DNA of 62,546 bases, counting the filler, from Stramenopiles sp. TOSAG23-6 (lineage: Eukaryota), in assembly GCA_900128565.1 (NCBI GenBank). It is 6 parts of 6 records of this genome, joined end to end, with 100 filler letters (N's around TTAATTAATTAA, not from the genome) between each part and the next. Parts side by side here need not be neighbours in the genome. Positions count along the whole stretch, not along the records: positions 1 to 12,132 come from LT636215.1; 5 more parts are not named here. One strand, 5' to 3'. The notes beneath the pieces were generated by a model. The model did not search any database and was not told the DNA's origin. It saw nothing but the letters and a program-made list of their open reading frames with translations. The translations under genes were made by a program, and so were the position numbers. Shown in pieces: positions 59 to 59,997 of this stretch (positions within the stretch are counted from its first letter, which is position 1; the number at the start of each line of letters is the position of its first letter).

Positions 59-3000
59 GTCTTTGCGTTCTGGAAAGGGACAAAACGTTTTCGCAAAAAT
101 TAGATGGTAATCATACAGATTGTATAACTTCACGAGATTTATTATTAAACTCATTAATGCAAATGTACGATTTGATTGGTGAAAAAGATATTGTACTTTC
201 TCTAATTAATAATTTATCGAAATATCCAGAAACAAAATTGGCTGTTGCTTCGGAGTTGCGAGGTGACATTCAGAAAGCTTACCAGTTGTATAATATTCAA
301 TTAGATAAAGAAGATCAACAAATAGTTAACCCAAGTAACATTGAATATTCAAAATGGGCAAATGGAAGAATTGGATGCTTAAGAACTCTGCAAATGTGGG
401 ATGACTTACATGACAACATACTCGCAGATGTTGATGGTATTCCAAATAACCTTTGGATTGAAGAAGGATGTATGTTTTCAGGATCAATTTTAAATTTATT
501 TTTTTTTCGTACGAAACTTTGTACCTAACAAAAACATTTACTAGAAAAAATATTTTTCCAAAATACTTGCATTGATACAATTGGAGATTATTTACGCTCT
601 TCGCTTCAACTGCATCAGCATCATAAAGAGTTGTTTGATTTTATTGATGCAGCCGCCGCAGATAAAACAAATTACCAAAATAATTCATTTAGTGGGTATG
701 TAGGGAAAAAATGGTCCTGGTTGAGAAGAAATCATCCAGCTGAATTAGCTACAATTTATATACTTAGAGAAGATTTTGGTAGAGCTGGAGCTATTCTTCA
801 AGATTTTTTTTCTGCAATGACAAAGCGATGGTGTAGTTTACATCAAATAGCGGGAGCTGCAAAATATCTAGAATTACGTAAACTTCAAAAAGTTGTTGAA
901 GTATTTGATTTTCTTGAATTTCAATCAAAGTGTAGCGACGACTCATCACCAAACGATATTGATATAAAAATATTATTAGGTCGGTGGAAATCGAGAATGC
1001 CATCGATTCAAGTAGATGACTCATTTACCTGGAGCGATGTTATGGGATTTCGTGGAATATTTGCTCAAATTTTGATCAATCGTCTGAATTTATTTGGAAA
1101 ACAATCTAAAGTTCGAGCGTGTAAAGTCGGTGAGGCAACAGCTTTGGGATTTTTAAAAGCATCTGAAGGATTGCTTGCACTTGGAATTGTTCCTGTGGCA
1201 AAAATGTATTTAAATAAAGCGAAACAAATTTCGACATCTCCAAATGCTTTTGATATGATTCGCGTAGAGACTGAAATAAATCGTTATGTGGCGGGTATGT
1301 TTTTTTTTTCAATTTTTTATCTAATTTTTTTTCATACGAAATTTCGTACCTAACAAAAACAAAAACAAAATATTTTTTCACAATAAATGTGTTACAAAAA
1401 TCGGGAAAATTAAATTACTTCAGCGGACCTTACAAATTGTAGATACAAATATTTCAGTGTTAGCAGGTACTATTGATCATATGAAGAGTGCGGAGTATTA
1501 TTTATTACGTGGCAATATTGCAAGAGACTTATTTAAGGCACTTTCAGATTATTCTGATGAAAAAAGAGACCAAAGACGAATAAGCCGAATGAAAGAGTCA
1601 CATGAAAATGCGTTTATTTGTTTTCAAAATGCAACAAAATCATCAATTAAAAATGTAACGGAAAGTCATATGTATGTTTTATTTTTTTTTTTAACGAAAA
1701 AATCGAATTTTTTTTTCGTACGAAATTTTGTACCTAACAAATTTATGTTTTTTTTTTTTGAAATATTTTCCAAAATACATCGAGACTTCTTTAAACAAGT
1801 ATACTGTTGAAAATAGATTGGATAATTTATCCTTGGATATGAAATATATGTATGAAGTTTCACAGCGTTGTTCTTTTGAATGGGCTTCATTTTGTGATTT
1901 GTCTATTCAAAAAATATGTTCGAATAAGAATCAAACTGTTCATGATACCAACATAGTTATAGGTGATACTACATATAATTTTGCTGTTATTGCAGTGAAA
2001 CAATATCTAAAATCACTTTCACTTGGAAATTTTAAGTCTAGTTCAAGAATTCCACGAATTCTGGAGTTATTACAAATATACCCATTTACACATTCAGTAT
2101 TTACAAATGAAACAAAATCAGTCCCTTCTTGGATGTTTTTAGGTTGGGTTTCACAAATGATGGCTAATATGGGAGAATCTCATGGTTTGATTATAGTTTC
2201 AGTTCTTGAGAGAATGGCAAAACATTATCCTCAAGCATTATTTTTTCCTTTTAATATATCACGATCTTCATTTGAATCTTCAGCATTGGGGAGATTACCA
2301 TTCCTTTTATCTTTACCTATTCTTGAGAATATGATTGTTGCATTTCATGGACTTCGACATCCACATCAAAGATGGTTAGATGGAATTAAGTCTATTTCAG
2401 AATCAATTGAAGATACAGATGTAGCAAAACAAATGTTGAAATGTGTGATGGACGACTGCCTTGAATCACATTCAAAAGTTGGCGTAGGACCTCTTATTGG
2501 TGAATACAATAGAATGTGGGCTCTTACGTTTGGTCCAAAACTTCGTAAAATATTTGATTTGAAATCGGATGGAAGTGTAAAAAAAATTGAAAAGAAACAA
2601 TTAAAGAAAGCAATATCTAAAGAAACGATTCAAATGTTTGAAGCTGGTGTCAAAAAAAGTAAAATGAAAAATGGTCTTGGTGTAAACTTTCGACCACCGC
2701 TTCGTTGGTTTTCTGATTGGCTTGATGATTTTGATGGCGTGCAACAATTTGCTGAACATGGTACAAATATTGAAATATTTGGTCAGTATGGAGCTGGGCT
2801 CTCAAGACCTCAACCTGAATTACACGCTCGCATTGAAAACTTTGGTCCAGAATTATTATGTATGAATTCTAAACAACTTCCAAAACGCTTACAAATTCGT
2901 GGATCCGATGAAAAAGAACGTTTTTATCTTGTAAAAGGTGGAGAAGATTTACGACTTGATCAACGAATAGAGTCGTTATTTTGTGCAATGAATAAAATTC

Positions 3001-4400
3001 TTTCTACAGATGCTGCATGTAAAAGTCGTAATTTACAGATTCGAACGTATGAAGTAATCCCAATGACTAAAACGATGGGTGTTTTACAATGGATATCAGA
3101 TAGTGTTCCGCTAAAGAGTGGAATAGAAGAAAGTATATTTCAATCCTTGAAAAGGCAAAATGTATTAAAAAAAGTGTCTCGTCATCGTCAAAATAGTAGA
3201 AAAAAACAAATTTTACAGAAATATGAGTTAACCAATTTGGAATGTGTAGGATTGCGTATACAAAATAATTTCTTAGCTACAAAGAAGAAATTTGGCCACC
3301 CTTTTGATCCAAAGACATATATTAAACTTATGGAATTTGGACAAGTCAAGGATTGTATTTCAAATTTCAATAATTGTGTAGACGATGTATGTTTTATTTT
3401 TTTTCAAATTCCAATTTGTTTTCGTACGAAATTTTGTACTACCACGAGATTTATTGCGACAAATTCTTTTTGATCTCACCAAAACACCAGAAGGCTTTCT
3501 AGCAATTCGAAAGAATTTTGCACAAACATTTGCAACATTTAGCATTGCTTCCTATATATTAGGTATAGGTGACCGACATTTAGCAAATTTTTTATTGGAC
3601 AAAACCAATGGATCGTGCTGTGGTATAGATTTTGGGTATTCTTTTGGTATTGGTTGTACGTTGTCCACTTTAATTTCATTTTTCATGCAAAATGTCGTAC
3701 CTAACAAAAAAAAACATTTTTTTGAATCTGAAGGTTTCTATGATTTTAGTAATATACCTAACAATTCCTAACAATACCTAACAAATGTCAAACGTAAAAT
3801 ATATATTTTCACAATAAATGCACTCTACCTGTACCTGAACTGACTCCTTTTCGTCTCACTCCACAATTTACGAATTTATTTCGCCCATTGGACTCGAAAA
3901 GTTTATTAAGTCAGTCAATGGTTGTAACTCTAGATGCATTACAACGAAATCGTTTGGAATTACTAAATATTATGGATGTTTTTGTCCAAGAACCACTCAT
4001 TGATTGGANAATTTCTGCTTCAAAAAGTAAACAAACTGAATCCTTACCATCATCTGTATTAAATATTTTGTCTAATAGTTCTAATAATTCTAATAGAAAT
4101 ATTGAGGATAGTTGGTATCCACGCAAAAAAATTGCCACGGCGGAGCTAAAGTTATTAAAAGGAAATCCATGTAAAATCATGATTGAACACGAAATACGTG
4201 GTCAATTACATCCATTAGCACGTAAACAACAGGATAAATATGAAGAATGTATTTGGGGAAATGAAAATTGCTCACGTCGAAATGTAAAACATAAAGATTT
4301 TTGTCCTGATGTTGAAACACAAGTGAAATATCTCATCGAAATGGCATCAGATCCAAATGTTCTTGTTCGACAATATGCAGGTTTTTCTCCATGGGTATAA
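59..4400 (+). CDS. PRKDC: DNA-dependent protein kinase catalytic subunit (PIKK), 3' part, 5'-truncated; exons ~59-469, 569-1294, 1389-1671, 1781-3386, ~3436-3655, 3820-4400
   Basis: Motifs MNSKQLPKRL, YLVKGGEDLRLDQRIE, ILGIGDRHLANFL, GIDFGYSFG, LPVPELTPFRLT, MDVFVQEPLIDW and a FATC end (DPNVLVRQYAGFSPWV*). Frames join when the repeat introns are removed. Confidence 0.9.
470..568 (+). mobile_element. Introner-like intron, GT...TT (or AT...AC if shifted 2 nt)
   Basis: GTATGT start and family core. Removing 99 nt joins EEG-C-IDTIG. Confidence 0.8.
1295..1388 (+). mobile_element. Introner-like intron, GT...AT
   Basis: GG|GTATGT...CACAATAAAT|GT joins YVA-G-VTKIG. Confidence 0.85.
1672..1780 (+). 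mobile_element. Introner-like intron, GT...AT
   Basis: AT|GTATGT...CCAAAATACAT|C joins ESH-I-ETSL. Confidence 0.85.
3387..3435 (+). mobile_element. Truncated introner-like intron lacking CTAAC and the 3' half
   Basis: GTATGT...TTCGTACGAAATTTT runs straight into exon VLPRDLLRQ. Confidence 0.65.
3656..3819 (+). mobile_element. Introner-like intron, GT...AT, with four CCTAACAA copies
   Basis: Removal gives SFGIGCTLPVPELTPFRLT, the conserved PIKK motif. Confidence 0.9.
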
Positions 4401-7833: not shown

Positions 7834-8807
7834 CTAAAATCTTTGACCTATAGCAGCAATTCCATAACTCTTTTTTGGATCATAGACTCTAACATGTATT
7901 TTGGAAAAATATTTCAAAAAAAATCTTAAAAAAATTGTTAGGTACAAAATTTTCAAAAAAAAAAAATCAAAATTGAAAAAAAAATAAAACATACATGCGA
8001 CGATTTTTTATCTACTTTACATCTTGCTTGCGCATTTCCTGATGCTCGCAATTTAGCTTTTTCTCCCCAGATTCCCGTCTGGATTGTTGGTTTATACTGA
8101 CCGTTAGCACGAGAAATACTCTTTTGGGCCGGACCACTCGTTCCAATAGAACTTATTGAAAACGGTGTTTTTTTTTCACTCATTTGTATAAATTCTGAAG
8201 GATGACGAGCTTTCTGAAAACGTAAATAATCATTTTCCCTCCTCTGAAGAATAGCATCCTGCTGAATTTTATAATTATCTTTTTCATCTTTTCTTGTCAT
8301 TGATTGATCAATACTATCAGATGCTAAACTTTTTCCTGGATATAACTGGGCTTTTCTGTTCAAGGCATCACGTTGGTATTGCATCTCAAGTTCTAAACTC
8401 TCACTTTGAACTTTAGAATTTGTACGAGTTTTTTTATTTTCTGTGACAACCACACCTTGAATATGAAAAAAGTCTGGAGCAAGTGCAGACACACAACTAC
8501 CACCAACAGGTTTCACTTCTGTCTTATAGTCGTACGCCCACACACTTTGTTTTTTTGGCCTATCAACTCTAGCAACACCTGGAGTAAGCATGAATGCTGG
8601 TACATCATAAGAAATTGAAGAATCTTTATTTCTAGTATTTATTGCTGGATGAGGTTGTTTCTGAAGAGACTCATAATTATCCATTGCATATTCAGGACCA
8701 CAATCGAGGTATAACGTTTCACTTATATCACCCTTTATTCTAGGATTGACAACAATACCATTGATTTTCCAGTTATCTGGAACATCCGCTGACACAGCTG
8801 AATCCAT
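7834..8807 (-). CDS. Hypothetical protein; exons 8807-7995 and 7893-7834
   Basis: ORF interrupted by a repeat intron. Spliced end reads SSH-VRVYDPKKSYGIAAIGQRF*. Confidence 0.65.
7894..7994 (-). mobile_element. Introner-like intron, GT...AT
   Basis: CAT|GTATGT...CCAAAATACAT|GTT. Confidence 0.85.
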
Positions 8808-12132: not shown

Positions 12133-12232
12133 NNNNNNNNNNNNNNNNNNNNNNNNNNNNNNNNNNNNNNNNNNNNTTAATTAATTAANNNNNNNNNNNN
12201 NNNNNNNNNNNNNNNNNNNNNNNNNNNNNNNN
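12133..12232. other. Artificial contig linker (N-TTAATTAATTAA-N)
   Basis: 100-nt spacer with stops in all frames; same design occurs five times. Confidence 0.97.
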
Positions 12233-13555: not shown

Positions 13556-16326
13556 TTAATCACGATTTATTCCTTCTGATATTTTCTCATTATTGGTTTC
13601 GGATTCAACGGGATCAGATATTTTCTCATTATTTGTTTCGGATTCAGTAGGCTCGGATGTTGTTTCATTATTTGTTTCGGATTCAGTAGGCTCGGATGTT
13701 GTTTCATTGTTATTATTTGAAAAATTATTAAAATGATTTTGAAAGGCAGGTAACAATTGCCCCAACATACCTTGCATATCAGAATTTATATCGGACATAT
13801 TAATTATACGAGTGCCACTTGTGGTTGTTGTTGAATTAGGGATTTCAGATAAATTTTGAGTATGTACACCATTCATTTGACCATTTATTCCATTCATTAA
13901 TTGTAAAAACATTCCTTCCACATGTATAGTGAAAAAATATTGTTTTTTTGTTAAAAATTCATTAGGTACAAAATTTACTATGAAAAAAGTTAGGGATACA
14001 ATGAATGATGAAAATGTACCATATCGGGTGGATTTGTTGTTTGAGTGTCATTATTTGGAGTATTCGTGGACGCTGAGATTGGCCTTTGAGACGTTTCATT
14101 TGATTGTGCTTGGCCAGTAGACCGATTTGGCATATTTGTCATTCCCGAGTCTGCGACAACTGCCTGGATATGTATTCCAATATTATTACCAGAGTTACTA
14201 TATGCGGGTGATTGCGATGGTATAGATACTAGCTGAGCATACGCATTTGATGTATCTGCTATACTTACTGAATGTACTGAAGTATCAGCTGAACTTCCCG
14301 ATCGAAGAGTACTCGATGAATCTACTACATCATTCTGATCTGAAGATATTGAACCGGTATTTACTACATTGTCAGATTCACTTGATCGAATTGATCGAAT
14401 ATTCTCCTTCGTATCTATTTGTGCCGACTCTTCAACTTGGCTACTACAAGAAACTTTCTCTGTTTTCGCAATTTCAGAAACAAGTGGAGCTATATCAGAT
14501 ATTAGTCTCCCAACACGATCTATTAGGGGTGCTAATTCTACCGCATATTTTTTGAGTTCTACCTCTCCATTCTCAAGAAATCTATTAGCATCATCAGTTA
14601 CTTTTTCTTCTTGACTATTTTGTAAATACTTATCATCAGCTACCTTCTCTTCATCACCAAATCCAACAGTACGACTATTCATAGAATTAGAAAGAGTGCA
14701 AAACTTATTCAACAAAGGCACAACATTTGAAACCATTCTATTTACACTATTAATCGCATATTGTGAATCATTTGGGCCTGTTGAAGGACAGTTTGGTACC
14801 CACGAGGTAGGCGAAGGTGACATAAAAGGACCAGCGGAAGCTTTTCGTGTTTTTGTCCTAAAAGGGGCGACACGATTTGAATCCATTGGAATCCATTCGT
14901 CCCATCTAGAAGGCCAGCCATTATAATGTATATATAAATGAGTCTTGGAACACGAAATAACTGTAGCCTCTAACCACTGCTGCACTGTATCTTTCACATC
15001 TAACCACTGTCCCGTAGAAAATTTGCGATGTTTGGACATTGAGCGTTTTTTTTCTGTAATGTTATCTGAGATATTTTCATTTTCACGACTTTCAGTAGTA
15101 GATGAAATTAGATCAGGAGGACAAGGTGGGGGTAAAGATACTGGAGGACCTATAATATGGGAGTAACGAGGTTCTTCGGATTGTGCTGAGTTCATAACCT
15201 CAGTCCTTGCGGTTTGTGAAAGACTACTTAGAGCTTGAGCAAATTGTGAATTAAAAGTATCCAAAGATCCTGCTCTGTTGTTAGTTTCTCCTTCGGTAGA
15301 AGGAGGAGTTCCTTCTTGTTGAACTTGACGAGGTATAGAAATAGTGATAGGTGGAAGAGCTACAATACCAGCTTGTACCATTACTGGCCTTGGTACCGAT
15401 GCATTAGATGACGATGTATTATTTGTCGTAGTCGCCGAAGTACTACTAGTTACAGTAGATGAAGTACCACTAGTTGTAGTCACTGGAACTGGAACAGATA
15501 AGTTACCACTAGTTGTAGTCACTGGTACCGATGCATTAGATGACGATGTATTATTTGCCGTAGTCGCCGAAGTACTACTAGTTACAGTAGATGAAGTACC
15601 ACTAGTTGTAGTCACCGGAACAGATAAGTTACCACTAGTTGTAGCCACTGGAACAGATAACTTACCACTATCCACACTAGCAGTATAACTCACACACCCT
15701 CGATCTACTCTTGCATCACGTTTCGAATACTTTGCAGCACTCTCAACAATTGCATTAGCTTCCTCTTTTACTTTGTCATCGGCAATACTCAGAGCTGAAA
15801 TAAGTGTATTCATGGTTAGTAATCCTTGCCAAAGATGTTCCAGTTGCATGTTTTCTGGGCATCGATCTGGACGTACCCGTCCAGATGCACGTACCAGTCT
15901 ACGTGGTCTCCCAATATTTTGTAGCACACTATTCATAATAGAATTTCCCAAGTCATGCTGAGCTGTCGAACCCATAACAAAACGATGACTTGAATTCTGA
16001 TCAACAGTACTTGAAGTTGAATCAACACTAGATGTTTCACCATTATTAGTGGATGTGGGAAGTGTGGGACGTGCAATCATGTGCAATGTCATATTATTCT
16101 TAAATTTATACTTGGATAGAAGTTCTTCATCCTTGAGCAATTTCCCCTGAAAAATGAGTCGCTGCTTTTCTTCGGGAACTTGAGTTTTTTCAACGAGCAT
16201 ACTCCGTAAATCTTTTATAGGAATATCAGGCTCAACCCTCAAATGAAAAACTTCATTTCCTAATGTTTTTACCCGCATTGCGATTTTACCATCATTGGCA
16301 TCCATTGATGTATTATTTTCTGACAT
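13556..16326 (-). CDS. BAG6/Scythe-like ubiquitin-like-domain protein with an internal Tudor/MBT-like domain; exons 16326-14020 and 13921-13556
   Basis: N-terminal UBL (VKTLGNE...QRLIFQGKLLKD), GQWLDVKD...HYNGWPSRWDEWI, and S/T-rich tandem repeats. Confidence 0.75.
13922..14019 (-). mobile_element. Introner-like intron, GT...AT
   Basis: ATG|GTACAT...GTACCTAAT...CACTATACAT|GTG, phase 0. Confidence 0.8.
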
Positions 16327-16608: not shown

Positions 16609-17628
16609 CTAAAACCCTCCTCCTAGGTCATTTTTACTTGGAATGTCTTGAAACCGTTTCATTTTGAATTTCTTTCCCTTTTGTTTCTGAGCTTCCATCT
16701 TTTTACGTGCTGCAGTAGCATGTCCCAATGAGGCTTTTGTAGGTTTCATTCTGTCAAATTTCTTTGCATTAGCCTTACGACGTGCACGGTTGTCCTTGGC
16801 AGTGTTCAAAGGGTAGTCTGATTCAGTAGCTGAGCTTTGTGTATAAGGATTAAACATTGTGAAAAAATATTTCAGACATTTTATATTCGTTAGTTAGGTA
16901 CGTAGGAAATTTTCATAAAAAAAGAAATAAATTTGAAATTAATGTAGACAACCTACAAACTTACCATTAATAAGGTCCCTAATGGGCGTGTCTTTTTCTC
17001 TAGTTACACCGTAGATTTTCTCTTTTAACGCTGGATTACGACTATAATTTTCCAACATCTCTTTGCGAGATTTCGAACCAGTCAATTGTTGCTGGTCATA
17101 AATCTTGTGGGTTTTGTTGTAATTGTTTATATCTTTCACATTTGTCATGCCACCTTTTGTAACAGCGATTTTATTCATTTTAACAACATTCAGTTTTTTT
17201 TTATATTTGGATGTTGGTTGGAAACCAGCCCATGTTGTAATAACTTCACCCGCTCCTTCAGGATCTCGTTTGAGTTTATTACCAAAGCAGTGGTAGTCAC
17301 CTGGAAGGTCATACGAGGAATTCTTTGATCTTCCAATTGTTGCTTTCAGTAACATACGGTTATATTTGGTAGAGTTATGTTGCATTGACTTGTGTCTATC
17401 AAAAAAAGACACGAATTTTTCTCGAGAAACAAGTTGTTTATCCCCCCCGTAAAGTCGGTCGATCATTTGCAATAATTCTGCCTTGTTAAATTTCACACCC
17501 GATGCTTGCAGTACTTGTCCAAACGACTTTTTATTGAGGGATCCTTCCGTTTTCGATTGGAAGTCGTCAAATGCGCGTATGAGTGCTTGTGTATCCGTCA
17601 TTTTCCTGTGATTATTCGACGGCGGCAT
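16609..17628 (-). CDS. EF-hand plus CFAP77 (DUF4483)-like ciliary protein; exons 17628-16957 and ~16851-16609
   Basis: GRSKNSSYDLPGDYHCFG...EGAGEVITTW...VKMNKIAV and C-terminal KFKMKRFQDIPS. Confidence 0.7.
16852..16956 (-). mobile_element. Introner-like intron, GT...TT (GT...AT if 3 nt longer)
   Basis: GTTT|GTAGGT...GTACCTAAC...CACAATGTTT|AAT. Confidence 0.7.
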
Positions 17629-19021: not shown

Positions 19022-20768
<1,747 letters not shown>

Positions 20769-22230: not shown

Positions 22231-23381
22231 TTACACTTCAGATCGTTTCTGGTGTTTTATGCACCAGGAAATTGGTTTCAGAAGAATAGCCACGCCAGCA
22301 GATGTTGGTCAAAACCGCAGAATACTCAGTAGTGAACTATTAATGATACCCGTTATAAATGTAGTTTCGTGGGTGCCTTTGAAACATTCTTTGATTGAAA
22401 TTGTGTCGTTCCTTTTAAAACCACAATCATTGATAAATTCCCAAAGTGCGACTAGATAAAATATAAATACAACCTTGTATGGTATTGCAGGAACGGCACC
22501 GCCTCTGAAATTCCACACCAAGCGAGTTGATAAAACTCCAAGAACTGACGTCGGAGAAGCCCCCCAGAGAACAAAGAGAGAAATATCAATAAACAAAAAA
22601 ACACTTAGTATTAGAACAACATACCCTAACTGACTAGATTCCCCTGTGACACCAAATAAGAGTGCTAAACAAAGGATTAGGGTATGGAAGCAGCTCATGG
22701 CACGGAAAACATTAGCATATACATTGATATGAAAGCAATACCACTTATACTGAGACCCTGGAACGATACAGTATTTTCGGAAAATATTTCAAAAATTTCA
22801 AAATTGTTAGGTACAAAATTTTCTATTGAAAAAAAAAAACGGATTGAAAAATTCATCAAAAAAGCGTACAAGTATTTTGGCTTCTCTTTGTGTAAAATCC
22901 TATTATTCATAGACCAAGGCACACGATCCGTTTCATCACTGATTAGTTTTGATAATTCACCAGAACGATGTAAGCGTTGTATTTCTTCCTCTCCACCAAG
23001 GTACATCCCCTTTATATAAACCACAGGAAAGGTCAAAACTGGAAGTCCTAAAATTTTCTTTAGTGCAGCTCGATATGCAGGCGGGGTACCGACAATAAGT
23101 TTGGGGTTCAAATCATATTCTTCACGTAGTAGAGATTTAGCCCGCTCGCAGAATCCACATCCTTCTTTTTCAATAACTACAACGTCATTTCTTTCTATTG
23201 AAATTTGTAAGTCATTTTGAGCTTCGAGTGTATCTGCGGAGTCTACGAATATTGTACACTTATACTCTTCCAAGTACGATACTATATCTGACTTTACATC
23301 AGAAAGAAATCGTGTAAAATTATTCCTATTAGACATATCAGTCACATCATCTGATGACATAATAGATCCATACAATGTCAT
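22231..23381 (-). CDS. Glutaredoxin (CGFC) fused to a multi-pass membrane domain (DUF4395-like); ends at TGA 22309-22311, or at TAA 22231-22233 if the TGA is Sec
   Basis: KEGCGFCERAK and TFPVVYIKGMYLGG. The frame joins the hydrophobic ORF after intron removal. Confidence 0.7.
22769..22869 (-). mobile_element. Introner-like intron, GT...TG (GT...AT if 3 nt longer)
   Basis: TT|GTACGC...GTACCTAAC...GAAAATACTG|TATC. Confidence 0.75.
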
Positions 23382-24364: not shown

Positions 24365-24464
24365 NNNNNNNNNNNNNNNNNNNNNNNNNNNNNNNNNNNN
24401 NNNNNNNNTTAATTAATTAANNNNNNNNNNNNNNNNNNNNNNNNNNNNNNNNNNNNNNNNNNNN
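24365..24464. other. Artificial contig linker
   Basis: N-TTAATTAATTAA-N. Confidence 0.97.
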
Positions 24465-24573
24465 ATGTATTTTGAAAAAATATTTCAAAAAAAATTCTAA
24501 AAAATTTGTTAGGTACAAAATTTACTATAAAAAAAAATTCGATTTTTTTGTTAAAAAAAAAAATAAAACCTAC

Positions 24574-28069: not shown

Positions 28070-30109
28070 ATGTCTACAAAACGAAAAAACGTTGGCTTGA
28101 CTGATTCAAAAACCTTAAAAAAAGCATGTACACTTTCATCTACACATGTGAGTTCTACACTTACATCAAATATAAATGTAAGTACACAAAAAGTAGGATG
28201 GCATAGATATACAAAGGGAAAAGAACTGGGAAAAGGAACATTTGGGACGGTTTATTTGGCAACAGATAATGAACATTCTGGAACTCAAGTAGCTGTAAAG
28301 AAAATGCGTATGGAAAATACAGCTGAAGGTGTAGGCGTAGTAACACTTCGTGAAATCAAATTACTAAAGGAATTTCAATTACTACCACACCCCAATATAA
28401 TATCACTACTAGATATTTTTTCACACAAAGAGAGACTCCATTTAGTGTTTGAATTGTGTATGATTTCATCATGAATTTCAAATTTATTTATTTTTTTTGG
28501 TTTCATACGAAATTTTGTACCTAAGAATTTTAGTTGTCACAAAATTTTAAATGTTTTACATTATTTGTTTCACTATACAGGTCTGTCCGATTTAGAAGTC
28601 ATTATCCAAGATTCAAAAAGTAGGTTTTATTTTTTTTTTTAACAAAAAAATCGAATTTTTTTTTATAGTAAATTTTGTACCTAACAAATTTTTTAGAATT
28701 TTTTTTGAAATATTTTTTCAAAATACATCACCACTTTCACCAAGTGATACAAAAACATATATGCTTCATATTCTACGGTCAGTCTCACATTGTCATAATA
28801 ATTGGATTATGCATGTATGTTTTTTTTTTTTTTTTTTTAAATTTTTTTTTGTATGAATTTTTTTTTCGTACGAAATTTTGTACCTAACAAATTTTCAAAA
28901 TTTTTTTTTTTGAAATATTTTTCCGAAATACATCGAGATTTAAAACCAAATAATTTTTTTCTTGGTGTTGACCATCAACTAAAGTTGGGTGATTTTGGTG
29001 CAGCCAAGGAATATGTATGTACTCATAATGAACACACACGAAATATTTTGAATAAAGATTATTTTTGTGTGAAATTTGTGAAATTTTTGAAATTTTTGAA
29101 ATTTGAAAAAAAAAAAAAAAAAAAAAAAATTTTGACCAATTTTTAATCTGTACATAAATTTCACAATACATGCATCTCCTGAACGACAATATCATAATGT
29201 AATGGTGACTATATGGTATCGTCCTCCTGAATTACTGTTTGGTTCAAGAAATTATGGTGTTGGTGTTGACATGTGGTCTATTGGTTGCATTTTTGCTGAA
29301 TTATTACTGAAAAAACCTTTTTTAGCAGGTCAAAATGTTTGTTTTTTTTCTCAATTTTTTTTTTTTCGTAGGTAATTTTGTACCTAACAAATTTTCAAAA
29401 TTTTTTTTTTTGAATTTTTGTTCAAAATATTTATATTTATTATGAACCTTTTCAAAGTTTTTTTTNTTTTATTTTTTTTTGGTATGAAATTTTGTACCTA
29501 ACAAAACCCAATATATAGACAAAAAAAAATATTTTTTTACAAAAAATGAATTAGATCAACTAGGAAAAATGTATGTTTTTTTTTTTTTCAAATTCAAAGT
29601 TTTTTTTCGTACGAAATTTTGTACCTAACAAAAAAAAATTTCAAATATTTTTCCAAAATACATATTTCATTATTTAGGAACACCAACTGAAGCCATTTGG
29701 CCCGGTATGACGTCATTACCATCATATATTGGTTTTACACCATGCAAAGCACCACCACTAAAATCATTATTTATTGGAGCATCCAGCGCAGCTGTTGATC
29801 TTATATCTAAATTACTCATGTACGCTTTCATCGTTTTTAATTTTTTTTTTTTTTTTTAAATTTTTTTTTTTTTCAATTTTTTTTTTCAATTTTTTTAATT
29901 TTTTTTTTTTTTTTTTTCATACGAAATTTTGTACCTAACAAAAAAATAAAAAAAAAATTTCAAATATTTTTTTTCAACATAGTTATGATCCTTCGAAGCG
30001 TATTTCTGCTAAAGAGGCGTTACGTCATAAATATTTCACAGAAGGTGTTCAACCAACACAACCAAAAAACTTAGCAGCAGCAGTGAAATTATCATCTAAA
30101 AGGAAATAA
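28070..30109 (+). CDS. CDK7: Cyclin-dependent kinase 7 (CAK/CDKD)-like; exons 28070-28457, 28581-28619, 28729-28814, 28934-29014, 29172-29336, 29548-29570, 29664-29819, 29983-30109
   Basis: Spliced product [85 protein letters not shown]. Confidence 0.9.
28458..28580 (+). mobile_element. Introner-like intron, GT...AG
   Basis: Family core; joins FEL-C-LSDL. Confidence 0.9.
28620..28728 (+). mobile_element. Introner-like intron, GT...AT
   Basis: AA|GTAGGT...AAAATACAT|CA joins DSK-T-PLSPSD. Confidence 0.88.
28815..28933 (+). mobile_element. Introner-like intron, GT...AT, inside the catalytic HRD motif
   Basis: CAT|GTATGT...AAATACAT|CGAGAT gives H-RDLKP. Confidence 0.92.
29015..29171 (+). mobile_element. 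Intron GT...AT with a degenerate family core
   Basis: TAT|GTATGT...CACAATACAT|GCA gives KEY-ASPER. Confidence 0.85.
29337..29547 (+). mobile_element. Introner-like intron, GT...AT, with two core copies
   Basis: Joins AGQN-ELDQL. Confidence 0.85.
29571..29663 (+). mobile_element. Introner-like intron, GT...AT
   Basis: Joins [10 protein letters not shown]. Confidence 0.9.
29820..29982 (+). mobile_element. Introner-like intron, GT...AG
   Basis: Joins KLL-I-YDPSKR. Confidence 0.85.
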
Positions 30110-30865: not shown

Positions 30866-32118
30866 GTAAAAAAATTTTGTTTTTTTTTTTTTTTTTAAAC
30901 ATTTTAAATTTTTTTTTTTTTTTTTTTTTTTTTTGGTAAAAACATTTCGATTTTTTTTTTCTTTGTGTCATAAAAAAATTTTAATCCAACATTTTTGTAA
31001 AAAAAAGAAATATTTCAGTACAAAATAGGGTTCATAAAAATCTAATACGGTTCAAACAAAAAGATTTTGATACAATTGTTGAAAATCCTATAACAAATCC
31101 TATAACAACAATTGTATCTACACAATATCAAAATGTTCAAAATGTAAAACAATTTAAACAATTGGATAGTATAAGTAATGATAAATTTGTCGTTGGTACG
31201 GATCATGACATTTCAAATCGTGTTTCTTTACTTGAAACGAATATGTATGTTTTTATTTTTATTTTATTTTTTACAAAAAAATTGAATTTTTTTTTTCGTA
31301 CGAAATTTTGTACCTAACGATTTTTTTTTTTTTTTTTTACAAAAAAATCGAATTTTTTTTTTTATAAAAATTTTGTACCTAACAAAATTTTAGGTTTTTT
31401 TTGAAATATTTTTCCAAAATAAATTGTTCAACACAGACAAATAATTGATACTATAACTACAAAGCTTCTGAAAATTATGAATATAAAAGATTCTTATGAA
31501 CTCAAAGCAATGTATAATTGTGTATTATATGAAGAGTTTTGTAATAATGTGGAAGAAAAAATTGAATTTATTTTGACAACTTTTGAAAAACAACAAAAAC
31601 ATATGAAATATAATGTAGAAAAAGAAGCAAAAAAAATATCAAATGAAACTTTCAAATTAAACATGAAAGATTTTGATGATGATATTATTGATGATGATGA
31701 TGTTGTTGATGATGATGATGATGATGATGTTGTTGATGATATTGTTGATGATATTGTTGATGATATTATTAATGATGTTGTTGTTGATGATATTATTGAT
31801 GATGATGATATTGTTGATGATGATGATGATGATGATATTATTGATGATATTATTGATGATGATGATAATGATGATGATGATAATAATAATAAAAATGAAA
31901 AAAAAAAGTTTCAAAGAGGAAATTTTTTTGATTTTAGTGATGGATTTGCAAAAAAAAAAAAAAAAAAAGATCATTGGAACAATCATGAATCAGTATTTGA
32001 TGAAAATGTTTTTGGTGAATTTGGATCACAAAACATAAAGACAGTGTTTGATGAAGATGTCTTTGGTGAATTTGGTCAATCTAACTCTAGTACGAAATTG
32101 AATTCACAATATTTATAA
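30582..32118 (+). CDS. Putative secreted protein with an Asp-rich tract; exons 30582-30808, 31029-31244, 31425-32118
   Basis: Hydrophobic N-terminus. The frame is continuous after removing introns 30809-31028 (GT-AG) and 31245-31424 (GT-AT). Confidence 0.65.
31245..31424 (+). mobile_element. Introner-like intron, GT...AT, with two core copies
   Basis: Two GTACCTAAC motifs; ends CCAAAATAAAT. Confidence 0.8.
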
Positions 32119-32314
32119 CAAAAATTTTGACACTCAAAAAAAAAGTCATATAATGAAAACACAATCTTTATTCACAATATTGTACATTTGATATAATAAA
32201 AAAAAACATTTCAAAAAAGGTATTTTTTTATTTTTTTTAAACGAAATTTTTTTTTTCATAGTAAATTTCGTACCAAAGAAATTGTACAAAAAAAAAATTG
32301 AAAAAAAAAAAAAT

Positions 32315-32735: not shown

Positions 32736-32838
32736 ATTGTATTTTAGAAAAATATTTCAAAAAAAAAAAATTAAAAATTGTTAGGTACAAAATTTCGTAC
32801 GAAAAAAAAATCGAATTTGAAAAAAAATATTTACATAC
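32736..32838 (-). mobile_element. Introner-like intron, GT...AT/AA
   Basis: GTATGT...TTCGTACGAAATTTTGTACCTAAC...AAAATACAAT. Confidence 0.8.
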
Positions 32839-36592: not shown

Positions 36593-36692
36593 NNNNNNNN
36601 NNNNNNNNNNNNNNNNNNNNNNNNNNNNNNNNNNNNTTAATTAATTAANNNNNNNNNNNNNNNNNNNNNNNNNNNNNNNNNNNNNNNNNNNN
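36593..36692. other. Artificial contig linker
   Basis: N-TTAATTAATTAA-N. Confidence 0.97.
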
Positions 36693-36878: not shown

Positions 36879-37160
36879 TCAACGTTGAACTTTGCATCCT
36901 CTATAACTATTATTCTTTACACAAAATTTCAACATTTCAGACCAACATTTCAGACCAATATTGATCATCTGCTAATGTAAATGGATTACCTACAACAATT
37001 GTTAGCAATTTTGCACGAGTTAACACAACTTGTGTTTTAGAAAAATATTTAATTTGTTTTTTGTTAGGTACAAAATTAAATACGATTTTCTTTTTTGAAA
37101 TTGAAATGATAAAATCGTACAATAAATTTACGAGGATTTCCCATTAAACCAAGTCCCATT
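36879..37160 (-). pseudogene. MOV10/UPF1-type SF1 RNA helicase C-terminal fragment
   Basis: LGLMGNPRKFI-VVLTRAKLLTIVVGNP...DQYWSEML. A 13-nt duplication shifts the frame away from KFCVKNNSYRGC. Confidence 0.7.
37030..37120 (-). mobile_element. Introner-like intron, GT...AA
   Basis: GTACGA...TTTTGTACCTAAC...AAAACACAA|GTT. Confidence 0.75.
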
Positions 37161-51671: not shown

Positions 51672-52967
51672 TCACAACATAGCTCTCTGGCGTTCTCTAT
51701 TGATACTTCTTTTTCTGAGTGAATTATATACCATTTTAGAAATGACTACATCCTGGACAGCCACACCTGAAGTATCAAAAATTGTAATATTTGCAGCAGT
51801 ATTTTTTGGTTTTGTATTTTTTTGCAGATTAGGGTTAGGGTTAGGTGTATTTTTTTGACATGCCAAGAGAATTGACCCAATTTCTTTTACTCTCGATATG
51901 TTGACCTTACCTGACTGTATCGCATGTTGAAATTCACCACGTTCCGCCGTTTGTTTCACACAATCTGTGACTAACAAATATTGTGAAAAAATATTTTTTT
52001 TTTTGGTAAAAAAAAATCGTTAGGTACAAAATTTCGTACGAAAAAAATTAGGAAAAAAATTAATGATAAAAACGTATATATCTGCTGCACATACTAATTC
52101 CACGTCTAATTCTTGTTTTCCTGGAGAATCAGCACCAATTGCGTTTATAAGCACTGGTGTTTTTCTATACTTAAACCATTCAGCGAAAAGAATGTAAGTA
52201 TGAAAAAATATATTTTTTTTTAGTTTACAAAAATTCGTTAGGTACAAAATTTACTATGAAAAAATAAATTTAAAATTCATGATGAAAACGTACATGGGCT
52301 CTCTAGACGGAGTCACACATATAATAACATCTGCCTCTGTAGCTATTACCTTTGGATGTAGAACAATTTCCACATCCCAGCCTTCATTATTCAGCTCAGT
52401 TTGAAACAAAAGAGCTGATGCACGAGTTTTAGAATAGCACAAAACTTTCTTACAGGTAGTGACACTTTGTAATAAGCGAAGTTGCCACCTAGCTTGAATT
52501 CCCGCCCCAATCACACCAATTGCTCTGATATATTGAGGTGCAAACAATTGTGTAGAAAGCGCTCCTGCTGCAGCTGTTCTAATTTCTGTAAGAATACCTT
52601 CATCAAATAAAATAGCTTCTAGTTTCCCACTCGTTTGACTAAAGATCAACATCAACCCCGTATTAGGAGAACCTAGTTTTCGTCTAGGATTCAAAGTAAA
52701 CCCACCCGAAGCTACTTTAGTGACATAAAATTCCCCACCATCAATATAACCTGATTTTACGCAAGTACTAGAATTTGGTGAATCGGACGATTTGAAGGGA
52801 TGGAAAGGTGGAGAACCCATTGTTTGTATTGGTGGAATAGAACACTTTCCGGATGATAAAGCAATGAATCCCTCAGCAACATTATTGATGACAGTAGAGT
52901 GATCGGAAATGACACGTTCTATATCATCTAAATAGAAAAGCAAAGGTATTGATTTGGAAGTTAGCAT
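51672..52967 (-). CDS. Ornithine cyclodeaminase / mu-crystallin family; exons 52967-52294, 52191-52078, 51975-51672
   Basis: LTEIRTAAAG, IGAGIQARWQ, INAIGADSPGKQEL, FDTSGVAVQD. Confidence 0.9.
51976..52077 (-). mobile_element. Introner-like intron with ATACGT in place of the GT donor
   Basis: GATAT|ATACGT...core...CACAATATTT|G. Confidence 0.7.
52192..52293 (-). mobile_element. Introner-like intron, GT...AT
   Basis: Joins SREP-I-LFAEW. Confidence 0.88.
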
Positions 52968-54304: not shown

Positions 54305-57300
54305 ATGCGTGTTTCTTTGGTAATAGTATCATGTTTGATCATCATGGCACACGCTAAAATGATGAACCATAAAGACAAACAAGCGATAAAGGATCAGCAA
54401 AAACAAGATTTGGCAGACGCAAAAAAAATACAAGAAGAATTTAAAAAAGCACAAGAGAAAAAAGCAGCTGATGCGAAGGCGGACGATAAAAAGAAACTAG
54501 AGGACGATAAGGCTAAAAAGACGGCGGAAAGCGAAAAACGTCGGAATGACATGGAAGCTATATTTAATACAATGAAAGATAAGAATACTAAAGAGGAAAC
54601 TGCAAAAAAAGGACTTGCTGACGACTTTAAGGCTTGCAAAAAGTCCATTAAACAGTGTGAAGATGATTTAAAAGCCAAAATGAAGCAAGATACTGGTAAA
54701 AGCGACATGAGTGATGCAACTTTTAGACGATATCTAAATAATGCTGCCGAACGTGCTTCTGCTACAGAATTGTCCAACAACCAAGGTAAATCATTCGAAG
54801 AACAATCAGACGCATTTAAAATAAAGTTAAAAGAATCAGGTGGTAAGGATTTGACTGATGAATTTGAAACCAGAGAACTAATGATAAAGGCCTCTAAAGA
54901 TGCAGGGGCATTAAAATTCAAGGATTGTAAAAAGAATGGAAACGATGAAAAAACATGTCGAAACGAAGCATTGACTGAAATGCAAAAAACTCACGTTTCA
55001 GGAAGTAAAACGGAAGATATGGCTGACGTCTTTAAGGCTTTAAGACGACAAGCCGATAAGGATGTTGCGGAATCACTTGAAAACACTAGCGGCTTAACTA
55101 AATTAGAACGCATTGAAGTTGCAAAAGAGGCTATATCTGGTGCGGAGGGTAAAAATATTAAGGATATCACAATGTCTGAAGCACTAGCCGCGATTGAAAG
55201 GGGAACGGAAAATGCGACATTGGGTGAGTTTTATGAGTGTATGAACGAAAAAATAAAAACTAAAAAACAATGTACTGCTTTAGCAAAAACCAAAGCACAA
55301 AAGGCTGGTGGAGAATCAAGTTATACTGACCTTGAGGTACAGGAATTTATGAAAAAGGGAATGAGAAACAAGGTTAATGAAGCAGTGAAAGCATCAGAAA
55401 CTACTGACGGTAGTGTTACAAAAGAGAACTTGGAAGAAAGAATAAAAGGAGAACTGAAAATTTTTCTTGGTGCAGACCCTACACATACGCAAATTCGTCA
55501 ATTCAAAAAAGAGGCAGGGAAAAAGGAGTCTACTGAAGTTATGGACGCTTGTATGGAAGCAGAAAACAATCGTGCGAATTGTAAAAGAAGGGCCACATCA
55601 GACTTAAATAAGTATGTTGCATCAACCCAGGAAGTGGGTAGAGCTTTTCTCGATGGCGCATCATCCGCGGCTTTAAGTTCTCAGTACGTTTTCTTCATGA
55701 ATTTTAAATTTATTAATTTTTGTACCAAAATTTCGTAAGATTGTTTTTAACCAATATCAAATGTAAAACATATTTTTTCACAATATATGCGAAATTGTAT
55801 GACATTAGCAGCAGGAGATACAGATGAACAGAAAATATGCCGAATTTTGTTCCGAGACGAACTCCAAAAGAGAAGGGGAAAAGACTCCCTCACTGTGTAT
55901 GAGATCGAAGAGGCAATAGTGTCTGCTGCAGAGCAAGATGTGAAAGAGTCTCTTGAAGCATATGTAGAAACTGAACAAAATCCGACAGTTGCTGGAAGTA
56001 GAAAAAATGTGAAGGATCGCCTTGCATTAACTCTTGGTCGTACAGTAACTGATGAATTTGCAGAATTTTACAGAAAGCAAAGTTCCCTGGTCGCTGCTGC
56101 AGATACACTTGGTCCTTGCATGGAAAATGCAAAAAACAAATCTGGTACAGAACTAACAAACCTTGAGAATACATGTATTACGCAGGCAAAAGATGCGGTG
56201 AGAAGGGCTCGTGGTGATAAGACTGCACCAAGTACAGTAGCATTACAAAAACTGATACAAGAAGCTGTTGAAGTTGAAACCGCAAAAGTGAAAGCTTCAT
56301 GTGGAGAAGATGAAAATGCTAACTGTAAGGGAAAAGAAGCCCGGCAGGAATTCGCAAACCAAGCCGCCAAAACGAAAGGAAAAGCTAGCATGACGGAGAA
56401 AGATTATTTGAAAGACCTAGTAAAAGGTAGTCATGTATCTTTTATTTTTTTCCAATTTCGAATTTATTTTTAGTACGAAATTTTGTACCTAACAAATTTT
56501 AGTTTTTTTTTTAAATATTTTTCCAAAATATATCGTTTGGTCAGTGATATTATCTCACAATGTCAAGAGGGAAATGAAGCTGATGGGGAAGCAGTTGATT
56601 GTACTGCAGGTCTCAAAGAGCATATGGGTAACTTGGGTGAAGATGCAACTGACAAGATGGCAACGCAAAGTGTCCAGCAATCTGCACCATATTGTGTTGA
56701 CGAAAAAATGAAAGTATGTGAGTCTCTTAGCAATTCACAATGTAATTCAAAACCAAACATAAAGAAGCATACTCAAATATGTTTAGGTAAGAATAAAGAC
56801 GATCCAGCTCTTGACGATGACACTGTACGTTTTCAAAATTGAATTTCGAATTGTTTTTGTACCAAATTTTGTACCTAACAAACTTTTACTAAAAATAATA
56901 TTTTTACAAAATACATGAAAGAATGATAAAAGAAGTTACTGCCATCGCTATGGAAGTCCTTATCAGTGGTTTTGAATATGAAAGCAGGCGTCGCTTAAAA
57001 AAAACTCCATCGGCTAAACGTCAAGAAAAAGAAAATGCTTTTAAATTGTCAACTGGGAAGACAGTTGGAGCTAATGGTGAAAATATCGGTTCGTACCAAA
57101 GCGCACATGACCGCGTCCTTGCTGCGGAAGCTGCAAGAGACGCAATGGCAAGAGCCAGGATGAGTGTTGAAGATGGTGGCTCGTCGGAGTCAACGGATGA
57201 AGAAAAAGAAGAAATGGCTCTTTTAGCCGAAAACGCTGTGGGTAAAACAAATAAATCAGATGTAAAGAAGCCTGAAGATGCTACAAATATGGAAAGGGAA

Positions 57301-58661: not shown

Positions 58662-59997
58662 TTATGTAAAATCGTTTAATCCGAATACCTTGTTTACTTT
58701 TTCGTGTTCATCAAGTTCTGTATTTGCCGTGAGAAGCATTTTAGATATCTGCGTTGCTAAGTTGTGAATATGAGCTCCATGGTCTTCCAATGTTTTCTGT
58801 AGTTCTAATATTGCGCTACGTGCAGCTTCAGATGCAACATGTTCTGTTTTTTCTAATGCTGCAGATTCTTTTAAAATCATTGCATCAATTTCAGAATCTG
58901 TGATACTCTTGTTGTTTCTTTCGATATCATCTTCATCTAATGGAACAATTTCACCAATTGCATTCACAATCACAGAAGCACCAACGTCTCTGTGTGTCGT
59001 CCCTAATTCTTTAATTTCTTGTGCTATAGCTGATGCCTTAGATTGCAGTAGTGCGTGATGTATTTTGTAAAAATATTTCAAAAAAAAATCGTTAGGTACA
59101 AAATTACGTACGAAAAAAAAATCGAATTTGAAAAAAAATAAAACATACATGCTCTTCAGCATCGAACGCCGCTTTAGTTGCATCATTTAAAGCATTCTTT
59201 TCATCTTGGAGTTTATCGACAAGATCTTCTACTTTATCCTCTAATTTTTCATCCAAGTTCTCACATTTTTTACGCGCAAGAACCACTTTTTGAAATTTTT
59301 CTTTTAAATTGGACATTTGGTTTTCATGTTTTTCATTCAATTTTTTAATTTCATCCTCCGCCTGCGCTGCGGTGACGTCACAAGTCGGGCACCTTTCGCT
59401 CCCTGGAAGACATGCGTCTTCACAACAATGACAACCTTTTGGTACTTGTTGAAGTTTCTTTGGGAAAAAACTTTCTGAGAATCGTTTCCCCCCGCCACAA
59501 GCACAGCAAGCATCTGCTGCGGTTTTCCCGTCTTTATTTATAAAGTCTAAATATTGCGCACAAGAGCGTGCTCGCGAATATGCTTTCTCTGCACTTGGAT
59601 CTTCACGCATGACATTGTGTAGCGTTTTCAAGTTATCCAATGGAAAATAAAAATAACAACCTACTCCATCACTATCCCTCCAATTATTGAGGTTTCGACA
59701 AGAACCATCATATATTGGGTGTTGTTGAAGTTGCCGTAAGTGACCTTTTACAAATGGAATTTTTGACTTTAGACCTCCACCACAAGAGCAACAAGCCTGT
59801 TTCCCAGATGTACCATTAACCTGATAATCTTCGGCCTTGTCACACCTATCAGTAGAATATTCATGGCAGGGGAAACCTTCTTTATCACTCCAACCATGCT
59901 GATCAAAACATTCTTCTTTCAAGACGCTCCATTGATCTGCTAAACAAGTTCGCACTGAAACTTGAATTAAAACAATAACGATCAGTTGTTCGATCAT
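58662..59997 (-). CDS. Secreted protein with two Cys-rich (W.D..G..C...ACC.CGGG) repeats and a coiled coil; exons 59997-59149, 59057-58662
   Basis: Signal peptide, repeats, and a frame join across the intron. Confidence 0.75.
59058..59148 (-). mobile_element. Introner-like intron, GT...AT
   Basis: CAT|GTATGT...CAAAATACAT|CAC. Confidence 0.88.

Follow-up and report, generated by a model that had tools for sequence, protein, structure and literature searches.

The 62,546-nt stretch of DNA analysed here (the window) belongs to the assembly GCA_900128565.1 of Stramenopiles sp. TOSAG23-6 and contains, at positions 1672-1780, an intron-like element within a gene for a DNA-PKcs-like PIKK. This element is very probably a member of a mobile, introner-type family that carries its own splicing signals, has GT-AT boundaries and is validated by RNA. 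A preliminary description had proposed a non-autonomous DNA transposon of the miniature inverted-repeat transposable element (MITE) type, which inserts at AT, carries the GT donor and uses the AT of its target-site duplication (TSD) as the acceptor. This proposal is partly supported: the mobile intron family, the GT donor carried by the element, the preference for AT and the scarless removal all hold, whereas the data do not establish a clear MITE anatomy or an acceptor supplied by the TSD, so that the proposed mechanism is no more than a possibility.

At least 30 complete and six contig-truncated copies of this AT-rich repeat of about 90-125 nt are present in the window. A core 20-mer from the middle of 1672-1780 had 28 matches with at most three mismatches, as compared to none in 100 shuffled sequences, and a profile built from 16 copies gave 41 nhmmer matches at E<1e-4. 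The 23 single-unit introns align end to end, with nearest-neighbour identities of 0.72-0.93 and a median pairwise identity of 0.685. Copies in unrelated genes are up to 93% identical, as befits the repeated and evidently mobile family that had been postulated, and the 30 complete copies are distributed over about 15 genes, i.e. they are the many similar introns at unrelated positions by which introners are recognised. The curated set used below consists of these 30 complete introns and of six introns cut by contig ends; counts with n=29 were made before one intron was added. Two subfamilies can be distinguished, a younger one with a GTATG or GTATC start and an older one with a GTACG start. All 36 genic copies are located in the sense strand of their gene. 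Every intron detectable in the window is supplied by this family, and no element-free intron was found among all adjacent same-strand open reading frame (ORF) pairs in the window. Some introns consist of two adjacent or partly duplicated copies or contain three tandem CCTAAC units (29337-29547, 31245-31424, 3656-3819 and 61388-61583). The family also grows by internal duplication or by insertion beside itself.

That the copies are removed exactly from the mRNA was examined by frame, homology and RNA. For 27 copies the acceptor was set at the aligned element end and offsets from -2 to +2 were compared. The exact element end gave the longest open downstream frame in 21 of the 27 copies, often for hundreds of codons, and for the focal intron at 1672-1780 only offset 0 leaves 563 codons open downstream. 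Six copies deviate, namely 3387, which is truncated, 16964 and 19231, whose junction repeats are longer, 28620, whose frame is ambiguous, 29337, a short micro-exon case that is confirmed by homology, and 32838, a GT..AC case. In the PIKK gene, removal of 470-568, 1295-1388, 1672-1780, 3387-3450 and 3656-3819 produces a single 1269-codon ORF, in which the sole stop among 1270 codons is the terminal one, after the FATC domain. The junctions at 470-568 and 3387-3450 show no gap against seven homologs, the latter being located at a conserved D^LLR without an indel (^ marks a junction), and the alignment with homologs at 3656-3819 displays a one-residue difference in a variable loop. Likewise, after removal of two 92-nt units the C-terminus of katanin is colinear, residue for residue and without any indel, with its second-best match (P0002, 68% identity). 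The spliced CDK-like sequence is colinear with its homologs as well, and its junctions restore conserved kinase blocks, which we take to be the catalytic loop and the blocks that follow it.

RNA evidence comes from contigs of two poly-A metatranscriptomes (X6 and X8, two samples of one study) that span 54421-58581 and 54984-58533. These contigs skip 55684-55788 and 56825-56916 exactly, the former in one contig each of X6 and X8 with an ambiguity of 1 nt, and they also lack 56435-56533 if the alignment is carried across three strain differences next to that joint. At the RNA-verified joints, the sole register that starts with GT ends in AT. A relative that is about 95% identical shares these three introns. 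In X7, a run from another study, the joint of 56825-56916 is weak, with 19 letters on one side, and it was not used as evidence. A contig of the DNA metagenome X3 that spans 55042-55800 keeps the intron 55684-55788 unspliced, and no joints skipping the three RNA-verified introns were seen among the 15 of 350 X3 joints listed. Joints in X3 between distant copies were regarded as repeat cross-matches and not used, and stretches without RNA cover were considered uninformative. Scarless removal is thus verified by RNA for three introns and supported by homology or frame for the others. On this evidence, pre-mRNA splicing removes each copy exactly from its first GT to its last AT and leaves the mRNA as it was before the insertion.

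Because of short repeats at the junctions, the boundaries of each intron can be drawn in several registers that are equivalent. GT..AT is the sole boundary pair that nearly all introns of the set allow. Indeed, 29 of the 30 complete introns start with the GT that is typical of canonical U2 introns, so that the donor is carried by the element as had been proposed. At the other end, 23 introns terminate in AT, two each in the canonical AG and in TT, and one each in TG, AC and AA. The non-AT boundaries, except that of 470-568, were placed by frame and may be shifted by 3 nt or a multiple thereof. Alternatively, the GT..AC, AT..TT and GT..AA ends (32739-32838, 51976-52077 and 37030-37120) may reflect further tolerance at the 3' end; the GT..TT end of 470-568 is supported by homology. 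The 5' end (n=29) reads G28 T29 A26 (T18/C10) G24 T24 followed by T's, i.e. GTAYGT. Further downstream there is a CTAAC-like site, usually inside TACCTAAC and with the nearest one mostly 34-49 nt from the intron end (range 18-56; none in the truncated copy), and a T-run that is also carried by the element. The 3' end (n=29) reads C(-10) A A/C A A T A C A T, with A(-2) in 26 and T(-1) in 24 introns. AG is absent from the last 45 nt of 18 of the 29 introns, and in seven more the only AG is at least 24 nt away from the end. The 64-nt copy at 3387-3450 ends at an AT outside the normal element end, a position backed by homology, which speaks for AT itself being recognised as the 3' end.

Other boundary pairs were considered and rejected. 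AT..AC boundaries are impossible where the exon end is not AT and are excluded by the ambiguity of two of the RNA joints (1 and 2 letters), and TG..CA boundaries cannot apply to introns that have no repeat on the left. A TA duplication of the Tc1/mariner type would leave ATGTACAT in the mRNA and is contradicted by the colinearity of katanin.

Yeast-type U2 introns have GUAUGU at the 5' end, UACUAAC at the branch site and YAG at the 3' end. The element resembles them in its 5' signal, branch-like site and pyrimidine run, but its last base is T, not G. Given the GTAYGT start, the branch-like TACCTAAC and the T-run, splicing would be carried out by the major (U2-type) spliceosome, in which case the 3' splice-site recognition of this lineage would accept AT. 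A more far-reaching interpretation is that one introner family supplied essentially all introns of this marine stramenopile lineage and that, along with this invasion, the major spliceosome shifted its 3' rule from AG to AT, with GT-AT dominating genome-wide. We regard this as a serious contender that falls somewhat short of an even chance.

The exon ends in AT before 18 of the 30 complete introns and before two of the three donors cut by contig ends. The total of 20 of 33 is close to the 'about 21 of 35' counted previously. AT has a background frequency of 9.4% over 20,001 coding positions, and the phase-matched expectation is 2.9 of 29, so that the enrichment within the window is real and strong (binomial p-values of 6e-11 for 17/29 and 1e-11 for 18/30). 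In terms of single positions, the exon context has A-2 in 21/29 and T-1 in 22/29 cases (background 29%), and the next exon has G+1 in 16/29 (background 20%). A direct repeat of at least 2 nt in some register was found at 23 of 29 introns, where the null mean is 5.1 and none of 5000 simulations reached 23, and at 24 of 30 with the added intron; AT is present on both sides of 15 of the 30 introns. However, 12 of the 30 exon ends are not AT, and eight of these 12 introns still end in AT, including the RNA-verified introns 55684-55788 (exon end CA) and 56825-56916 (exon end CT). This implies that the acceptor is not a simple copy of the target, and the earlier idea that the duplicated target AT supplies it is not supported in the form given. 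In our view, the acceptor AT is either borne by the element or maintained by selection, and AT, or more loosely T^G, is a preferred landing context.

Closer inspection of the junctions revealed three types, namely AT^, T^G and ^GT, and no single definition of an element plus a 2-nt duplication fits all of them. Independent preferences at the four flanking positions (A-2, T-1 ^ G+1, T+2) predict about 75% of 2-nt repeats as compared to the observed 79-80%, so that there is no need to assume an obligate duplication or microhomology. A constant dinucleotide is indistinguishable from an insertion preference unless there is a locus-specific matching position (PMC9860276, as far as the text was accessible). 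The third position matches (CAT) in four of the nine informative cases, weakly above the expected 16% or so. Two exceptions that had been quoted before are real direct repeats (8 nt to the left plus 2 to the right at 19140-19231, and 4 nt at 16856-16960), and both also permit a GT..AT register. By manual count, the exon ends in AT at 12 of 16 introns of the younger GTATG subfamily and at four of 12 of the older GTACG subfamily, which fits erosion after insertion. In the DNA metagenome, dozens of contigs matching other copies (28, 27, 58 and 28) diverge 2-3 nt beyond GT on the exon side near 52295-52296 and 59150-59151; as soft evidence, this fits AT or CAT before many copies genome-wide.

The focal termini are ATGTATGTTTT (1670-1680) and AAAATACAT (1772-1780) and, as had been noted, one matches the reverse complement of the other over ATGTAT, a perfect run of 6, followed by an extra G and then T's. 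This 6-nt inverted repeat is not above chance, since the 141-nt region contains 24 other inverted pairs of at least 6 nt by composition alone. Over the family, a perfect ATGTAT/ATACAT pair is found in 8/29 introns and GTAT/ATAC in 11/29. With matches at 5.3 of 12 positions, the two ends of the same copy agree no more closely than ends of different copies do (5.0), shuffled ends giving 3.9. Terminal inverted repeats (TIRs) of MITEs are about 10 bp or more. In an introner survey, a TIR had to be at least 6 nt (PMC9860276, accessible portions). The inverted termini of the present family measure 4-6 nt and overlap the splice signals, and they are therefore too short to prove a TIR transposon: of the MITE anatomy that had been described, the focal termini are as quoted, but the inverted repeat coincides with splice signals and is perfect in only the minority of copies given above. 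RNA folds of six copies showed no stability beyond that of shuffled sequences (z from -1.7 to +0.95), and the ends pair in the minimum-energy fold of three of the six copies and in none of the three RNA-verified introns. Structure-dependent nonconventional introns of the Euglena/Amoebophrya type, in which stable pairing of the ends brings variable boundaries together, were rejected, as the ends pair weakly and without conservation and show no complementarity specific to the copy.

As to the removal, two alternatives to U2-type splicing deserve consideration. The elements might be eliminated from DNA and not from RNA, in the manner of the internal eliminated sequences (IES) of ciliates, which would account for the precise, scarless removal and the short repeats at the junctions. 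This is extremely improbable, because the elements are kept in the DNA of the window and of the X3 contig across 55684-55788 but are missing from the poly-A RNA contigs, and because the copies carry complete spliceosomal-type signals. Alternatively, they could be introns of the minor (U12-type) spliceosome, which tolerates unusual terminal dinucleotides. Such introns have the 5' consensus RTATCCTT and a branch site roughly 10-26 nt from the 3' end. Three copies start with GTATCTTT, which is near this 5' consensus, CCTAAC resembles the U12 branch consensus, and the 3' dinucleotide is non-AG. Nevertheless, +5 is G in 24/29 and +6 is T in 24/29 introns where the U12 consensus wants C C, and at mostly 34-49 nt from the end the branch-like site lies well beyond the short U12 spacing, so that U12-type splicing is most unlikely.

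With regard to the spread of the family, our rough odds favour DNA-level insertion, which we nevertheless put a little below one in two. On this reading, a MITE-like element, with or without a 2-bp duplication, would insert with a strong preference just after AT and often before G, giving AT^GT...AT^G junctions. The version of the preliminary description, in which a non-autonomous TIR transposon with the body GT...AC duplicates a target AT whose downstream copy becomes the acceptor, is possible but rather doubtful. AT on both sides of half of the introns, the difference between the younger and the older subfamily, the ATGTAT/ATACAT termini in 8/29 introns and the existence of one decayed intergenic copy are in line with it, and introners that carry a 5' site and co-opt a 3' site from the TSD have been documented (PMC9860276, accessible portions). 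What it does not explain is the terminal AT of eight of the 12 introns that follow an exon end other than AT: a non-AT target should place its own dinucleotide at the intron end, which was not seen, and five of the 12 exon ends (GG, TG, GT, CA and one more) would need two substitutions at adjacent coding positions. Moreover, the TIR of 4-6 nt is absent from most subfamily-B copies and overlaps splice signals, and, as had been stated for transposases before, neither a transposase nor a recombinase or reverse transcriptase was found among the 32 window ORFs scanned with Pfam. Neither TSD nor TIR would be needed if excised intron RNA reverse-spliced at ..AT^G.. sites and were then reverse-transcribed and recombined into the genome. 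The sense orientation of all 36 genic copies in transcribed genes, the fact that every copy comprises a whole intron, GT to AT, an exon context that mimics the intron ends like a proto-splice site (A-2 in 21/29, T-1 in 22/29, G+1 in 16/29) and the 5'-shortened copy 19140-19231 with its 10-nt direct repeat would suit this route. We consider it unlikely, since a DNA element spreading in a gene-dense genome would also be expected to survive in the sense orientation only, the decayed copy sits between genes, and most introner families were found to move as DNA (PMC9860276, accessible portions). A recombinase of the Crypton type could instead insert a circle with the junction ..AC-AT-GT-AT.. by crossover at a shared 2 nt (AT, TG or GT). 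The 2-nt repeats in some register at 24/30 introns, far above the null mean of 5.1 of 29, and the occurrence of all three registers AT^, T^G and ^GT would be expected from this, but the independent preferences at the four flanking positions already predict about 75% repeats without any need for microhomology and the 32 ORFs include no tyrosine recombinase, which makes it improbable. The remaining odds go to some route beyond DNA insertion, reverse splicing or a circular, recombinase-based one.

Several observations weigh against a mobile GT-AT intron family that spreads in DNA and is spliced by the major spliceosome. The support for the focal junction is from frame, since the protein varies too much at this place for a comparison with homologs. 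RNA support concerns three introns, and it consists of assembled contigs (Logan), not raw reads. As these contigs differ by about 5% from the window, they come from a relative and not from the host strain, and it is conceivable that the DNA of that strain has none of the three introns. No empty site was encountered; a metagenome scan with a katanin exon gave only AAA ATPases of 24-30% identity and no orthologous loci. Furthermore, no autonomous element was found among the 32 ORFs of the window, and all but one copy lie in the gene sense strand, the sole exception being the decayed intergenic copy at 32217-32285, in a window that is too gene-dense to judge the orientation of copies outside genes. 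Lastly, seven of the 30 introns (AG x2, TT x2, TG, AC and AA) do not end in AT, and no small nuclear RNA or splicing-factor gene was found in the window, where Rfam and tRNA scans were empty.

Introners with canonical ends that leave the mRNA unchanged are known from Micromonas pusilla, Aureococcus, Chrysochromulina, Symbiodinium and others (PMC11282704, PMC9860276; this and the following comparisons refer to the accessible portions of the papers). Like these, the present elements are short, non-autonomous, near-identical sequences that make introns in many genes, leave the mRNA length unchanged, carry one splice site, have short junction repeats and reside in a marine protist. The known introners differ by GY..AG ends and by clear TSDs of 3-9 bp and/or TIRs of at least 6 nt, whereas 23 of the 30 introns described here end in AT, the flanking repeat is a constant AT that is inseparable from a target preference, and the inverted termini measure 4-6 nt. 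In Fritillaria borealis, transposon-like introns with non-AG 3' ends, including AT, dominate among the introns and are served by an adapted spliceosome (10.1101/2025.08.15.670264), with U2AF paralogues being implicated (PMC11282704; 10.1101/2025.08.15.670264). However, its main classes are AG-AC and AG-AT, the 5' GT is lost and the sequences are diverse, whereas here 29/30 introns have the GTAYGT start, only the 3' dinucleotide departs from the canonical one and a single family is involved. Amoebophrya introners share the non-GT-AG ends, the direct repeats at the junctions, the terminal inverted repeats and the lack of an internal transposase, but their ends are unfixed, hairpins of 8-20 nt pair the ends and U1 was undetected, as opposed to the regular GT..AT and weak pairing in the window (PMC7789003). 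Non-canonical, transposon-like introns are also known from euglenids (PMC11282704). The present family differs from these in that the GT 5' site is still strong and the branch site still regular, in that essentially only the last base is changed, and in that a single family accounts for all introns seen in 62 kb.

In the literature searched, part of it as partial texts, neither GT-AT introners nor unusual introns of MAST lineages were reported, and GT-AT was not described as the dominant intron class of any organism. Likewise, the accessible portions of the gene-prediction methods in the single-cell stramenopile genome paper, of the Incisomonas genome paper and of a 2026 preprint on single amplified genomes make no mention of them, and the parts of the introner-survey supplements that were searched hold no introner entry under MAST, Nanomonadea or Incisomonas. 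According to the accessible portions, introner surveys depend on annotated introns, the 2025 survey accepting AG and AC as 3' ends, and the survey genome table holds marine stramenopile single-cell assemblies without annotated proteins; such assemblies would consequently not have been screened.

The consequences for annotation are exemplified by the best katanin match, the public model P0001 (86% identity, with a source label starting GSMAST32). This model represents the same or a near-identical katanin gene. In the stretch that derives from the element it agrees completely with the window (19140-19404 (-)), yet nine conserved residues are missing from it at the first katanin intron, and part of the second element appears as protein, a mis-annotation that results from the introns being non-AG. 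Gene finders that demand GT-AG miss these introns and mis-build the genes, and protein catalogues and functional inferences drawn from such single-cell or metagenome assemblies would be systematically wrong wherever these introns occur. The assembly also breaks at the elements, since at least seven of the 11 contig ends in the window are inside copies. For studies on intron gain, the family is a clean example, supported by RNA, of gain through a mobile element, and its host, a heterotrophic marine stramenopile, belongs to a group so far missing from the introner map. For spliceosome evolution, the combination of textbook 5' and branch sites with an AT end isolates the 3' terminal base as the single variable, and the GT..AT elements offer a system in which to see how far the second step and 3' site recognition can drift. 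Should the 3' rule have shifted from AG to AT, GT-AT would be the dominant intron class of the whole genome, with AT much above AG.

The coordinates of all copies are listed in the Table, in which the two introns of a palindrome arm (24465-26596 / 26597-28728) were tallied once.

Table. Copies of the element family in the window and signals of the focal intron. Positions count along the window; twin denotes the identical copy in the other palindrome arm.
Feature	Position	Strand	Boundaries and junctions	Support
Focal intron, DNA-PKcs-like PIKK gene	1672..1780	+	109 nt, GT..AT	frame; ORF after five removals
Focal intron, exon-side AT	1670-1671	+		sequence
Focal intron, 5' signal GTATGT	1672-1677	+		sequence
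Focal intron, palindromic core TTTCGTACGAAA	1714-1725	+		sequence
Focal intron, branch-like TACCTAAC	1731-1738	+	43 nt from end	
Focal intron, T-run	1748-1759	+		sequence
Focal intron, terminal ACAT	1777-1780	+		sequence
PIKK intron	470..568	+	GT..TT, exon end AT	frame; colinear with homologs at junction
PIKK intron	1295..1388	+	GT..AT, exon end GG, next exon start GT	frame, ORF
PIKK intron, truncated element, 64 nt	3387..3450	+	GT..AT, GAT at both junctions	homolog alignment
PIKK kinase-domain intron	3656..3819	+	GT..AT, three CCTAAC repeats	frame, homology comparison
Element intron	7894..7994	-	GT..AT, CAT^GT at both junctions	frame
Ubiquitin/Tudor-domain gene intron, subfamily B	13922..14019	-	GT..AT, exon end TG	Pfam, frame
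CFAP77 gene intron	16856..16960	-	4-nt repeat GTTT; five equivalent registers, among them GT..AT	
Katanin intron 2, 92 nt, 5'-shortened copy	19140..19231	-	10-nt direct repeat; GT..AT register possible	colinear with P0002
Katanin intron 1, 92 nt	19313..19404	-	GT..AT, exon end AT	colinear with P0002
Glutaredoxin-domain gene intron	22769..22869	-	GT..TG by frame; acceptor 3 nt on (22766) gives GT..AT	frame
Element intron	28458..28580	+	GT..AG; perfect twin 24613-24735 (-)	frame
Element intron	28620..28728	+	GT..AT, exon end AA; twin 24465-24573 (-)	frame not decisive
CDK-like gene intron	28815..28933	+	GT..AT	junction restores presumed kinase catalytic-loop motif
CDK-like gene intron	29015..29171	+	GT..AT, diverged interior, exon end AT	homology
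CDK-like gene intron, two adjacent copies	29337..29547	+	GT..AT	homology
CDK-like gene intron	29571..29663	+	GT..AT, exon end AT	frame, homology
CDK-like gene intron	29820..29982	+	GT..AG (element end ACAT, then AG)	
Element intron, internal partial duplication	31245..31424	+	GT..AT	frame
Intron of a gene presumed PP2C/PTC7-like from a motif	32739..32838	-	GT..AC, 5-nt repeat AATAC	frame only
Element intron, subfamily B	37030..37120	-	GT..AA	frame
Ornithine cyclodeaminase-family gene intron	51976..52077	-	AT..TT, first G replaced by A	frame
Second intron of ornithine cyclodeaminase-family gene	52192..52293	-	GT..AT, CAT repeated	frame
RNA-verified intron, 105 nt	55684..55788	+	GT..AT, exon end CA	X6 and X8 contigs
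RNA-verified intron, 99 nt	56435..56533	+	GT..AT, exon end AT	RNA contigs
RNA-verified intron, 92 nt	56825..56916	+	GT..AT, exon end CT	X6 and X8; weak in X7
Element intron	59058..59148	-	GT..AT, CAT repeated	frame
Gamma-tubulin-complex gene intron, two partial copies	61388..61583	-	GT..AT, CAT repeated	
Element intron, subfamily B	61800..61908	-	GT..AT; sole copy with compensatory GTAC/GTAC terminal pair	frame
Element intron, upstream exon cut by window end	62425..62527	-	GT..AT, exon end AA	
3' part of copy cut at contig start	1..58	+	end AAAT	
5' part of copy cut at contig end	12233..12286	-	exon end TT	
5' part of copy cut at contig end	24311..24364	+	exon end AT	
3' part of copy cut at contig start	48918..48983	+	end ACAT	
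3' part of copy cut at contig end	60958..61041	-	end ACAT	
5' part of copy cut at contig end	61142..61228	-	exon end AT	
Decayed copy between two convergent genes	32217..32285	+	preceded by AG, branch-like site mutated, no recognisable 3' end	

The copy at 19140-19231 (-) is without the first four consensus bases, and its 10-nt direct repeat (8 nt left, 2 nt right) is by far the longest of any copy. Intron sliding and a different insertion route are both possibilities in this case.

The window has about 33% G+C, is eukaryotic and consists of six joined contigs of 12132, 12132, 12128, 12125, 12124 and 1405 nt. The linkers between them, N44-TTAATTAATTAA-N44, are located at 12133-12232, 24365-24464, 36593-36692, 48818-48917 and 61042-61141, and any gene adjacency across a linker is therefore artificial. 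According to Pfam, the window contains ordinary nuclear genes, namely those for the DNA-PKcs-like PIKK, katanin p60, a CDK-like kinase, CFAP77, TruA, a SpoU methylase, a VPS13-like protein, a gamma-tubulin-complex protein and others. The homolog list of the PIKK is headed by stramenopile and MMETSP proteins, and the same DNA is present in seawater metagenomes and metatranscriptomes. From the labels and hit lists, the host would appear to be a marine stramenopile of a MAST lineage.

A perfect inverted duplication of 2132 nt without a spacer (24465-26596 / 26597-28728) begins at a contig end and looks more like an amplification or assembly chimera than like biology. A gap of 196 N's is present at 36054-36249, and scattered single N's occur in an AT-rich, ORF-poor stretch at 38228-39175. 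Short telomere-like CCCTAACCCTA / TAGGGTTAGGG motifs are found at 13307, 25387, 26070, 26247, 26936, 27113, 27796, 40164, 51653 and 51830, apparently outside the listed ORFs, and may represent a promoter or boundary motif.

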